From an uncultured Planctomycetia bacterium (GTDB taxonomy: Bacteria > Omnitrophota > Gorgyraeia > Tantalellales > Tantalellaceae), in NCBI GenBank assembly GCA_964409365.1, contig CAYPCX010000005.1, positions 1 to 63,221 of the forward strand: a stretch of DNA of 63,221 bases. Direction: 5' to 3'. The notes beneath the pieces were generated by a model. It saw nothing but the letters and a program-made list of their open reading frames with translations, had not been told where the DNA came from and made no database searches. The stretch's first letter is position 1, and every line of letters begins with the position of its first letter. Positions 1 to 1,445 of this stretch are shown piece after piece. Position numbers and translations under genes: made by a program.

Positions 1-2
1 TC

Positions 3-623
3 CGCAGGGCATCAGAGAACAGAGAGATCATTATTAAAGGAATAGGCGATGCCATGCGTGAAGCCCAGCTGATGGCCGGACGCATAGACACACTGATAAA
101 TGAAACCGAATCAAAACTGAATGAATGCCATCACGAGGCCAAGACGCTTCTTGACCTTGCAATGAGCGGCACAGTAACCAAAGGCGCCGCGTATAAAACA
201 AAAATGCATGAACTTGATAATATGATCGTGGCTCTGGAAGATAAGCTGACCAAACTCCGGACACAAAAGACCGCCAATGACATGACAGCCAACTCAGGCA
301 ACTACCTGCACGAAACCCTGCAGTTTGCCATGGAGCATCTCGACAAAGCCCCGGCAGATGCCCAGAAAAACCTTATAAAGGCCCTTGTCAAAGAGATCGT
401 AATCCATAAAGAGGTTATAAACATTAAAATGTACCTGGGCGATCCTGAAGAAACCCTGCAGGCCGATATTAACGATTGTAAGCACAATACCGAGCCCATA
501 AAAAAGAACTGCCCTGTTCCGGTAAAACACCAGAACAGGGCAGTAACCAACCAGACGCTTGGTGCGTCTGTTCGTCAACAATGGCTCCCCGGGTTGGATT
601 CGAACCAACAACCTACTGGTTAA
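3..623 (+). CDS. C-terminal part of a probable large serine recombinase (5' end outside the window); its last codons are the antisense of tRNA-Asn
   Basis: The frame is open from base 3 (RRASENREIIIKGIGDAM...). A long coiled-coil is followed by AQKNLIKALVKEIVIHKEVINIKMY, the typical LSR C-terminal pattern. It ends WLPGLDSNQQPTG* inside the tRNA. The catalytic domain is not visible. Confidence 0.6.
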   Translation, partial: RRASENREIIIKGIGDAMREAQLMAGRIDTLINETESKLNECHHEAKTLLDLAMSGTVTKGAAYKTKMHELDNMIVALEDKLTKLRTQKTANDMTANSGNYLHETLQFAMEHLDKAPADAQKNLIKALVKEIVIHKEVINIKMYLGDPEETLQADINDCKHNTEPIKKNCPVPVKHQNRAVTNQTLGASVRQQWLPGLDSNQQPTG

Positions 624-657
624 CAGCCAGTCGCTACTACCATTGAGCTACCGGGGA
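582..657 (-). tRNA. tRNA-Asn (GTT), intact, CCA encoded
   Basis: Reverse complement reads TCCCCGGTAGCTCAATGGTAGTAGCGACTGGCTGTTAACCAGTAGGTTGTTGGTTCGAATCCAACCCGGGGAGCCA (76 nt). Acceptor stem TCCCCGG/CCGGGGA, anticodon arm ACTGG-CTGTTAA-CCAGT, T-loop GGTTCGAATCC. Confidence 0.97.
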
Positions 658-660
658 GCG

Positions 661-928: not shown

Positions 929-957
929 TTTATAAACCAATACACTTACATTGTCAA
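929..957 (-). promoter_or_regulatory. Sigma70-type promoter of GIY-YIG copy 1
   Basis: TTGACA (957-952), 17-nt spacer, TATAAA (934-929), 25 nt upstream of the ATG at 903. Confidence 0.7.
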
Positions 958-1021
958 CAGCCCCAGCCAGAGGCTGGTCAGCCTTCGGCTGAAGTCGCTA
1001 CTACCATTGAGCTACCGGGGA
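956..1021 (-). pseudogene. tRNA-Asn 5' half with a 30-nt insertion in the anticodon stem
   Basis: TCCCCGGTAGCTCAATGGTAGTAGCGACT + [TCAGCCGAAGGCTGACCAGCCTCTGGCTGG] + GGCTGTT; no T-arm or 3' half follows. Confidence 0.85.
963..992. repeat. Double 15-nt hairpin (REP-like); second copy at 1327-1356
   Basis: CCAGCC-AGA-GGCTGG directly followed by TCAGCC-TTC-GGCTGA. Confidence 0.85.
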
Positions 1022-1024
1022 GCG

Positions 1025-1267
1025 TTATACTTGCAAACCATCCAGAAATTGTCTGCCTTTTCCGGATTTCAAGAACTTCTCACGTTTAATAGCTTCCTTC
1101 TTCTCAGGATATCTCTCGCTATACAACAGGACAAAAGGCCTGTTCTGGCTCGTCCAAATGCTATCCCCCTTATTGTGCTCTTTTAATCTTTCCTCAGGGG
1201 TCTTAGAAGTATACCCTATGTACCTTTTGCTATTACGTAAACTCCTTAATACATAAACGTGATACAT
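1025..1267 (-). CDS. Stand-alone GIY-YIG nuclease (80 aa), copy 2, identical to copy 1
   Basis: Identical translation in the ORF track. Confidence 0.9.
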   Translation of the reverse strand: MYHVYVLRSLRNSKRYIGYTSKTPEERLKEHNKGDSIWTSQNRPFVLLYSERYPEKKEAIKREKFLKSGKGRQFLDGLQV

Positions 1268-1292: not shown

Positions 1293-1321
1293 TTTATAAA
1301 CCAATACACTTACATTGTCAA
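1293..1321 (-). promoter_or_regulatory. Sigma70-type promoter of GIY-YIG copy 2
   Basis: Same TTGACA-N17-TATAAA as 929-957, offset by 364 bp. Confidence 0.7.
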
Positions 1322-1385
1322 CAGCCCCAGCCAGAGGCTGGTCAGCCTTCGGCTGAAGTCGCTACTACCATTGAGCTACCGGGGA
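1320..1385 (-). pseudogene. tRNA-Asn 5' half with the same 30-nt insertion (promoter-proximal copy)
   Basis: Same as 956-1021; sits at the original chromosomal position behind the native promoter. Confidence 0.85.
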
Positions 1386-1416
1386 GCGAAGCATGTATGT
1401 CTTTCAGCGAACTCTA

Positions 1417-1445
1417 ATTATAGAGAATATACCAGACATTGTCAA
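1417..1445 (-). promoter_or_regulatory. Native tRNA-Asn promoter (consensus sigma70)
   Basis: TTGACA (1445-1440), 17-nt spacer, TATAAT (1422-1417), pointing toward the tRNA 5' end at 1385. Confidence 0.8.

Follow-up and report, generated by a model that had tools for sequence, protein, structure and literature searches.

The 63,221-nt stretch of DNA analysed here (contig CAYPCX010000005.1 of assembly GCA_964409365.1, from an uncultured bacterium placed in the Omnitrophota by GTDB; hereafter the window) carries an intact tRNA-Asn(GTT) gene that is preceded, on the minus strand, by open reading frames (ORFs) for a GIY-YIG nuclease and by displaced copies of the 5' part of the same tRNA. These lie in a tandem repeat at 629-1388 (period 364, 2.1 copies, 100% identity), and each unit reads, on the minus strand, CGC and tRNA nt 1-29, a 30-nt insert, tRNA nt 30-36, a promoter-like site and the GIY-YIG ORF (Table 1). 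All coordinates are positions in the window, and the insert is described on the minus strand. The subject of this report is the insert, a pair of adjacent hairpins (a doublet), which very probably belongs to a family of 30-bp double-hairpin insertion elements with copies at many dispersed sites. It sits in a dispensable 5' copy of tRNA-Asn, and this copy arose when a small GIY-YIG cassette together with a duplicate of tRNA nt -3 to 36 settled before the functional tRNA.

In the intact gene GCGACT and GGCTGTT directly adjoin (...GCGACT/GGCTGTTAACC; slashes mark junctions). Both displaced 5' copies read GCGACT/TCAGCCGAAGGCTGA-CCAGCCTCTGGCTGG/GGCTGTT/GACAATG. The insert splits the tRNA between nt 29 and 30, in the 5' strand of the anticodon stem, and tRNA homology ends 7 nt later, after nt 30-36. 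A preliminary description, made from the letters of this DNA, had placed two 15-nt hairpins with a CAGCC-N3-GGCTG core in the anticodon stem of both 5' halves, and this was borne out in full: the insert is exactly 30 nt, is absent from the intact tRNA, and both of its hairpins are perfect. We found that the core occurs four times in the window, where 0.03 occurrences are expected, and that all four lie within the two inserts. Perfect hairpins with a 6-bp stem and a 3-nt loop number 33 in the window; adjacent doublets are formed solely at the two inserts. Folding of the insert as DNA gave two hairpins as the centroid structure. The two insert copies belong to one repeat and do not differ, and so they amount to a single observation. 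An Rfam search of the window gave no match to the doublet, the intact tRNA being the sole match, and no tRNA-Asn 3' fragments were found elsewhere in the window.

Table 1. Features at the tRNA-Asn locus of the window.
Feature	Position	Strand	Basis or remark
Intrinsic terminator 3' of the tRNA	508-544	-	17-bp stem, then T-run
Intact tRNA-Asn(GTT), encoded CCA, without insert	582-657	-	ARAGORN; Rfam tRNA 66.6 bits
tRNA nt 1-29 + 3 leader nt (CGC) of the intact gene	629-660	-	First of three copies of a 32-nt segment
GIY-YIG ORF copy 1, 80 aa	661-903	-	Pfam PF01541 E=4.6e-17; stop 3 nt before tRNA 5' end
Promoter-like TTGACA-17 nt-TATAAA before ORF copy 1	929-957	-	Read by eye
tRNA nt 30-36 (GGCTGTT) resuming past the insert, copy 1	956-962	-	Junction alignment
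30-bp double-hairpin element, copy 1	963-992		Minus strand: TCAGCCGAAGGCTGA at 992-978, CCAGCCTCTGGCTGG at 977-963
Displaced tRNA-Asn 5' fragment, copy 1 (CGC + nt 1-29)	993-1024	-	Repeat comparison
GIY-YIG ORF copy 2, 80 aa, identical to copy 1	1025-1267	-	ORF list
tRNA nt 30-36 past the insert, copy 2	1320-1326	-	Junction alignment
30-bp double-hairpin element, copy 2, identical to copy 1	1327-1356		Sequence comparison
Outermost displaced tRNA-Asn 5' fragment (CGC + nt 1-29), abutting native upstream DNA	1357-1388	-	Repeat comparison
Native consensus promoter TTGACA-17-TATAAT (12/12)	1417-1445	-	Promoter scan

The locus was compared with homologous GIY-YIG/tRNA units, nearly all of them from metagenome assemblies, in which the taxon labels of some metagenome-assembled genomes (MAGs) are doubtful. 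The GIY-YIG protein of the window has 76 listed relatives with identities of up to 77%. The closest relatives with genomic context, a Joint Genome Institute (JGI) metagenome contig (L001) and an Omnitrophota MAG (L005), encode proteins that are 76-77% identical. Both have a displaced tRNA-Asn 5' copy that is interrupted at the same 29/30 site by TCAGCCGAAGGCTGA-CCAGCC(TAT/TGC)GGCTGG. Closer to the 5' end of the copy there is a second doublet, which follows nt 8 in L001 and nt 13 in L005. Scanning one genome per GTDB species yielded 80 more loci, with proteins 47-76% identical, in Patescibacteria, Omnitrophota, Elusimicrobiota, Dehalococcoidia and others. The typical unit consists of a tRNA 5' fragment, the doublet, 2-9 further nt of tRNA, a short leader, the GIY-YIG ORF, a spacer of 0-40 nt and the intact tRNA, and the displaced fragment corresponds to the resident tRNA. 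Asn is the commonest partner tRNA, and Ile, Val, Pro, Thr, Ala, Gln, Met, Phe, Arg, Gly and Cys also occur. Doublets were found after nt 8, 12-13, 17, 28-29, 34 and 54 of the tRNA fragments. A mirror layout, in which the intact tRNA is followed by a doublet-bearing 3' fragment, was observed in L012, L013 and L015.

Among 82 non-redundant GIY-YIG loci an intact tRNA lies within 200 nt of the gene in 63, and a doublet lies within 400 nt in 54 (perfect) or 63 (near-perfect). We counted 73 perfect doublets in 87 kb around GIY-YIG genes versus 5 in 520 kb of flanks, an enrichment of about 80-fold within 400 nt of the genes. Nearly all of the near-gene doublets (66/73) interrupt tRNA-derived sequence, and the tRNA match spans the junction when the 30 nt are removed. 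The gene-proximal doublet regularly lies 2-9 nt from the end of tRNA homology. Since removal of the doublet restores a complete tRNA in 0 of 90 cases, the element is found solely in disabled tRNA copies; in the homologous loci examined the working tRNA never contains it. The proposal that the insert is an element resembling the repetitive extragenic palindromic (REP) sequences gained from this comparison, as the doublet is conserved in, and strongly associated with, homologous GIY-YIG/tRNA units.

Some individual loci showed further features. At L001:2761-2952 and L009:2704-2939 the functional tRNA-Asn has a group I intron in its anticodon loop (RF00028, 84 and 93 bits), because of which ARAGORN misses both genes. 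The intron interrupts the DNA a few nt away from where the displaced copy has its doublet, and it could shield the working tRNA gene from a nuclease that acts on DNA. At L006:2300-2530 two diverged tRNA-Val-like copies lie 3' of an intact tRNA-Val(GAC); in both, an imperfect doublet of 31 nt (TCCGCCGAAGGACGGA + TCAGCCTATGGCTGA) follows nt 8 and splits the copy, and the 5' acceptor strands of the copies mismatch their own 3' ends. The same locus has two copies of a repeat of ~100 nt (L006:640-740 and 790-890), each with a single hairpin of the same family, TCCGCCTTAGGCGGA. Two doublets per contig were seen at L089:6243-6315, L162:4911 and 6099, L205:3554 and 4277, and L182:2425 and 2658. Some of these pairs are 13 nt apart and others are identical and lie in similar flanks; paired identical doublets suggest local copying or larger repeats that carry the element. 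In P0002, P0008, P0045 and P0050 gene callers ran the GIY-YIG ORF through tRNA fragments or doublets, so that the proteins acquired spurious tails at the N or C terminus, for example ...SGFSRRLTSLRLG... and ...PVQPEADPPQAEA....

The 71 distinct doublets of the first locus set gave the consensus (YCMGCC-NNA-GGCKGR)(YCMGCC-TNN-GGCKGR). The first hairpin reads (T/c)-C-(C/A)-G-C-C, loop (A/G)-N-A, G-G-C-(G/T)-G-(A/g), and the second reads (T/C)-C-(A/C)-G-C-C, loop T-N-(T/C), G-G-C-(T/G)-G-(A/G). The final base of loop 1 is A and the first base of loop 2 is T in 70/71 each, which gives the doublet the same form on either strand; among the matches listed in a metagenome scan (described below), every site that matched the search pattern did so on both strands. 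The length of the element is 30 bp without exception, and runs of three or more hairpins were not seen among the 71 doublets, which always have two. Sets of perfect hairpins are selected for pairing, and the unbiased test of pairing was made on the pattern-defined metagenome set of 99 distinct elements, in which positions 3/13 and 18/28 had been left free. Among the matches listed, these free positions pair in 94/99 distinct elements at 3/13 and in 94/99 at 18/28, using C-G, A-T, G-C and T-A. Since the free stem positions pair, so that structure is kept and sequence is not, two short hairpins are the conserved feature. A long hairpin of arm 1 with arm 4 was rejected as the conserved fold, being fully paired in merely 32/99. 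We also rejected the doublet as a replicated single hairpin that makes a palindromic 30-mer: loop 2 is the reverse complement of loop 1 in 17 doublets versus 24 expected, stem 1 equals stem 2 in 48 versus 55 expected, and whole-30-mer palindromes are not in excess. An intrinsic terminator was discarded as well, as only 544-508 qualifies within the window and the bases next to a doublet are typically T before it and A after it. A miniature inverted-repeat transposable element (MITE) or other derivative of a DDE transposon would suit the inverted-repeat-like halves, yet there is no duplication at tRNA junctions with known pre-insertion sequence.

The target step is pyrimidine-T/purine-purine (YT/RR), here ACT/GG. 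Dispersed copies sit in TTT/.../AAA, and copies in tRNA at YT/RR steps such as GTT/GG, CTT/AG, GCT/CA and TTC/GA; the sites used in tRNA-Asn (8/9, 13/14 and 29/30) are simply the YT/RR steps that this tRNA offers. Where the original sequence is known from comparison with the intact tRNA, there is neither target duplication nor loss. The first base of the hairpin follows the flank, being T after T in 92% and C after C in 47% (odds ratio 10, p=1e-14). Beyond this base the arm does not follow the target. The preliminary description had noted that the hairpin core matches the local anticodon-stem sequence GGCTG and had proposed that it might derive from, or track, its target. We found the same hairpin types beside AGCTCAG, CAATGG, GGTTAGAGC and GAATCC, and beside AAA in protein genes, and the arm GGCTGG adjoins a GGCT flank in 11/30 versus 9/22 for other GG flanks (p=0.78). 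Junctions at other tRNAs gave the same answer: apart from the outermost base, the core does not track the target sequence. Since the arm beyond the first base is indifferent to the target, the likeness of the core to GGCTG is, by these comparisons, coincidental save for the outermost base.

Copies of the element are widely dispersed. The scan of metagenomes with a degenerate 30-mer hit at least 120 stretches, and the counts that follow refer to the 128 doublets among the matches listed, whose order of listing is unknown. About 13 of the 128 lie within 200 nt of a GIY-YIG ORF of the family, all of them in tRNA-like sequence as judged by reading the flanks. Long ORFs contain 76 doublets (59%), which are read through in frame, since 30 nt is ten codons; the encoded peptides are SAKGGSASGG-like in 42 cases, PPEADPPLA-like in 18 and RQRRIRLWR-like in 16. 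The remaining copies are intergenic, beside terminators or in tRNA-like pieces. Host genes that could be named by reading the sequences include those for DnaE, UvrC, an RseP-like protease, LysRS, RecG, GyrB and an enzyme of the CCA-adding/poly(A) polymerase type, and the DnaE and RecG identities were confirmed against solved structures. The alignment with Thermotoga RecG (1gm5) has a gap of 9 residues that coincides exactly with the element. The site could be located in 99 RecG relatives from Patescibacteria; 95 of these are without the insert, including the closest (75-85% identical), and 4 have a doublet-like insert at the same Phe/Lys junction. Because of this gap and the 95/99 versus 4/99 split, we conclude that the element is a genuine insertion with presence/absence polymorphism. 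Phage origin was rejected, as merely 15 doublets were found in IMG/VR viral contigs, none of them near such a GIY-YIG ORF.

The 80-aa protein beside the doublets is a bare GIY-YIG domain (residues 1-70 match PF01541, E=4.6e-17), and 28 homologues all share Y5, Y16, G18, H31, E51 and E63. The family profile matched the UPF0213 protein EF2693 (1ywl) at 4.8e-11, BH0048 (1zg2) at 1.7e-10 and SLX1 (6seh) at 2.6e-5, and reached merely 0.19 with I-TevI (1mk0). Since the profile favours 1ywl, 1zg2 and SLX1 over I-TevI, the predicted nuclease is placed in the UPF0213/Slx1 structure-selective branch and not with the I-TevI type. Slx1, YhbQ and YazA are grouped in a single family of structure-selective nucleases (PMC7017083). 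The protein is not Slx1 proper, as it consists of the catalytic domain alone, without the C-terminal PHD/RING-type zinc finger. It was also rejected as a homing endonuclease of the I-TevI/Seg type, since its 80 aa hold no second, DNA-binding domain. Searches of NCBIfam and PHROG with the nuclease gave no family match. Because an 80-residue domain can hardly read a long sequence, structured DNA (hairpins, cruciforms or the stem-loops of tRNA genes) would be a more plausible substrate than a long sequence.

Promoter 1445-1417 and terminator 544-508 enclose the fragments, the GIY-YIG ORF(s) and the tRNA, which for this reason are probably co-transcribed from the native promoter. The promoter-like site at 929-957 fails the strict scan rule, having A and not T at position 6 of the second hexamer. 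A 10-mer, TTGACAATGT, is common to the native tRNA promoter (1436-1445) and the promoter-like sites of the units (948-957 and 1312-1321) on the minus strand, and the -35 hexamer of the unit site overlaps the anticodon GTT of the displaced fragment. No RNA sequencing runs containing the 364-nt unit were found. In four metagenome runs the depth of the 364-nt unit unitig versus the unique right flank was 14.4/13.1, 12.4/14.3, 12.7/8.3 and 11.9/13.3. As the unit depth is about that of the right flank, the true copy number is possibly one; the population probably carries about one 364-nt unit, and the two-unit array may be an assembly product. At the level of unitigs, no empty tRNA-Asn site was seen in these four runs, and no joints indicating excision or a 30-nt deletion were reported.

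On the other side of the tRNA, a truncated ORF of at least 189 aa (window 1-623, plus strand) extends into the tRNA-Asn 3' end; a Pfam search gave it no credible match. The depth on this side in the metagenome runs is 4.5-6.6, versus 8-14, with many single-nucleotide polymorphisms, and other sequences join the tRNA-Asn near 582-596. These findings suggest that the 3' end of the tRNA borders on a segment that is variable or inserted. In the four metagenome runs, X1-X4, a contig corresponding to window 661 / 1025 has the tRNA 5' end followed by GCGTTATA and diverges afterwards (ACTTAAAAATCATCCGGTGAATTTTAATTA); its sequence points to another cassette variant, distinct from the first, at a tRNA-Asn of the X1-X4 communities.

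REP sequences are short palindromic repeats that occur in doublets and are scattered, and they regularly flank one particular gene of a nuclease type. For the genomic logic of the element the closest analogue is the system of these REP sequences, or REPINs, and their REP-associated tyrosine transposase (RAYT). The element likewise is dispersed as doublets, in at least 120 metagenome stretches and in the GTDB loci. However, RAYT is an HUH/Y1 (IS200/IS605-like) enzyme and the gene beside the doublets here encodes a GIY-YIG protein, and REPs are longer and extragenic, whereas 76/128 copies among the matches listed lie inside long ORFs. In its effect on proteins the element is closest to the Rickettsia palindromic element (RPE), which is also inserted in frame in protein genes. 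RPEs, though, are ~100-150 bp long, confined to Rickettsia and have no associated nuclease gene, in contrast to a 30-bp element with hosts in Patescibacteria, Omnitrophota and others. In form and behaviour the closest analogue is the mitochondrial double-hairpin element (DHE) of chytrid fungi and fission yeasts. According to PMC10085805 and PMC2800124, which cite Paquin et al. 2000, the DHEs of Allomyces, other chytrids and Schizosaccharomyces are short and consist of two adjacent GC-rich hairpins; these two sources also give them as dispersed in AT-richer DNA and also in RNA genes, with conserved structure, and as presumed mobile. Flanking duplications are lacking in Allomyces, according to PMC2800124. 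The element shares the two adjacent GC-rich hairpins, the conserved structure and the lack of target duplication. It differs from DHEs, with which it is compared here by structure and behaviour, in that they are mitochondrial and it occurs in bacterial MAGs at exactly 30 bp, in that DHEs have not been reported in frame in protein genes and have no Slx1-like nuclease partner defined, and in its tight linkage to tRNA-adjacent GIY-YIG cassettes. With other hosts, a length of 30 bp, mostly intragenic copies and an associated GIY-YIG gene of the Slx1/UPF0213 branch, the element is a member of none of the DHE, REP/REPIN and RPE groups.

The nuclease gene also has partial parallels. In phage T4 the GIY-YIG gene SegB lies among tRNA genes and propagates itself by cutting tRNA-gene DNA (PMC2330249). 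The gene here is likewise lodged at tRNA genes, but Seg proteins and I-TevI carry a separate DNA-binding domain, which the bare catalytic domain does not, and Seg loci are without duplicated tRNA halves or hairpin doublets. Slx1, YhbQ and YazA are the closest sequence relatives with solved structures (1ywl, 1zg2, SLX1), and Slx1 cuts branched and stem-loop DNA (PMC7017083). Unlike Slx1, however, the protein here is without a zinc-finger domain and without a Slx4 partner, and YhbQ-type genes are not known as mobile, tRNA-linked or hairpin-associated. In the literature searched, coverage of which is incomplete, we found no description of such a bacterial element or of a tRNA-linked UPF0213 cassette.

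The best explanation overall, to which we give a probability of about 0.5, is that the insert is a copy of a dispersed family of such elements and that these enter at breaks made by the adjacent nuclease or are mobilised by it; the identity of the element is very probable, whereas the link with the nuclease is somewhat less likely than not. Read inward from the flank, each half of the element would be x-C-M-G-C-C-N-N-A-G-G-C-K-G-x', with x tied to the flank, and from this two-fold form it follows that both sides of a break would be handled alike. Entry would take place at DNA breaks, with one hairpin of the same polarity added per broken end; alternatively, short templated copying could be guided by 1-3 nt of microhomology. 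At tRNA loci the breaks may be made by the neighbouring structure-specific GIY-YIG nuclease, or the nuclease may mobilise the element, in a relation akin to that of the RAYT gene and REP sequences. Copies in the functional tRNA would be lethal, and those in dispensable fragments and permissive protein sites would persist, with perfect stems held by selection or by intrastrand template switching. As side effects, the split tRNA-like site of the displaced copy would be protected from re-cutting, if the enzyme targets that site, and the displaced copy would be kept from forming a tRNA-like structure. Doublets occur at about one per 40-nt fragment beside the nuclease gene versus about one per 100 kb in the flanks. 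Neutrality alone would not give such a local density, which speaks for a link with the Slx1-like nuclease, either mechanistic or under strong selection; the mechanistic form of that link we put forward tentatively. Also possible, though doubtful, is a more specific version, in which the bare 80-aa Slx1/UPF0213-type GIY-YIG protein would be the trans-acting enzyme of an unrecognised class of 30-bp double-hairpin mobile elements that colonise protein and RNA genes in Patescibacteria, Omnitrophota and other uncultivated phyla, its gene persisting as a tRNA-duplicating cassette that leaves a doublet-marked, disabled copy.

Several observations weigh against a role of the nuclease. The protein is linked to the element by association of sequences alone and not enzymatically, and the shared taxonomic range (Patescibacteria, Omnitrophota and others) could be a phylogenetic confound. 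No recognisable doublet was found in 19/82 GIY-YIG loci, and about 90% of the doublets among the matches listed have no GIY-YIG ORF on the same stretch. The co-occurrence with GIY-YIG genes that the preliminary description had suggested testing is one-sided: it is strong around the genes (73 in 87 kb versus 5 in 520 kb), and about 90% of the metagenome matches listed lie elsewhere. Of the two findings that this description had named as jointly refuting its reading, one was made, as the doublets among the matches listed are scattered independently of GIY-YIG and tRNA loci, and the other was not, as homologous units do carry the doublet. The two hairpins of a doublet behave as independent draws from the family. 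Similarity of the GIY-YIG proteins is 0.60 between different doublet sites versus 0.61 within the same site; nearest-neighbour proteins share the doublet-site class in 32/53 (reached in 1/2000 permutations), and the case that each doublet site would represent a distinct nuclease lineage is weak. Finally, at L031:860-1010 (minus strand) an intact tRNA-Asp(GTC) is accompanied by a doublet-interrupted 3' copy, with no GIY-YIG ORF nearby. This copy lies 10 nt past the tRNA, is 100% identical, begins at nt 12 and has the doublet after nt 17; a further 3'-end tRNA fragment follows it.

The doublets could instead belong to an independent selfish element spread by other machinery, with the gene a bystander, that accumulates in displaced tRNA pieces because these are neutral and offer good YT/RR targets in hairpin-prone, highly transcribed sequence. 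This would accommodate the many doublets among the matches listed that lie far from GIY-YIG ORFs in unrelated genes, the tRNA-Asn sites 8/9, 13/14 and 29/30, which obey the same YT/RR rule as dispersed copies, and the doublet with a tRNA duplication but without a nuclease gene at L031. It does not predict about one doublet per ~40-nt fragment, as even if a tenth of the flanks were neutral they would hold about one per 10 kb, nor the regular distance of 2-9 nt between the gene-proximal doublet and the end of tRNA homology, and we consider it rather unlikely. Less probable still is a selected, cis-acting part of the cassette that was gained by chance and kept for self-immunity, through disruption of the nuclease target in the displaced copy, for blocking pairing with the tRNA 3' half in a common transcript, or for stabilising the 5' end of the nuclease mRNA. 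The gene-proximal doublet does lie ~3-50 nt before the start codon, and a separate promoter would not fit in most loci; fragments, ORFs and tRNA in the window are enclosed by a single consensus promoter and a single terminator; the stems stay perfect while the adjoining fragment sequence drifts; and the group I intron in the tRNA-Asn of L001 and L009 would be another way of altering the DNA site. Against this, the two-fold symmetry (loops NNA, then TNN) favours an origin at the DNA level over a function in RNA, the doublets in 3' fragments 3' of the tRNA (L012, L013, L015 and L031) exclude a role in the 5' untranslated region, and the 32 nt of uninterrupted homology left in the window would hardly block recombination.

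A local scar of hairpin-primed repair, with palindromes copied from the anticodon-stem GGCTG at the cut and so dictated by the target, would account for the likeness of the arms GGCTGA and GGCTGG in the window to the adjoining GGCTGTT and for the outermost hairpin base that follows the flank. We judge it very improbable: the same hairpin types are found beside flanks of unrelated sequence, and other tRNAs and protein genes have them too; the arm GGCTGG shows no association with the GGCT flank (p=0.78), and a scar made from the flank would give palindromes without fixed GCC-NNN-GGC cores. Archaeal tRNA introns can occupy non-canonical positions, and the precise 30-nt interruption of tRNA sequence recalls a small intron, of the archaeal bulge-helix-bulge type or similar, in copies that would then be functional. 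This has next to no likelihood, as excision restores a detectable tRNA in 0/90 cases, the copies in the window are without any 3' half, no Rfam family matches, and the same 30 nt are translated in frame within proteins.

Small insertion elements with a palindromic structure, such as REP/REPIN, RPE and the GC clusters and DHEs of mitochondria, are widespread; to our knowledge a mover is known for REP-RAYT alone. The element described here obeys strict rules that are easily searched (a length of exactly 30 bp, a pair of hairpins with mirrored loops, and no duplication of the target). It interrupts essential genes of candidate-phyla bacteria without breaking the reading frame, and close relatives differ in whether they have it. 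On the practical side, 10-residue inserts of the SAKGGSASGG type and interrupted tRNA pieces will mislead gene callers and tRNA finders when these are run on such genomes. The candidate partner gene is short enough for expression and testing. If the link with the nuclease is true, it would give a first function to tRNA-adjacent UPF0213-type GIY-YIG genes, a testable mechanism for DHE-like elements in general and an explanation of the tRNA half-gene arrays in these genomes. It would represent a partnership like that of REP and RAYT on a different enzyme fold and a bacterial counterpart of the mitochondrial DHEs.

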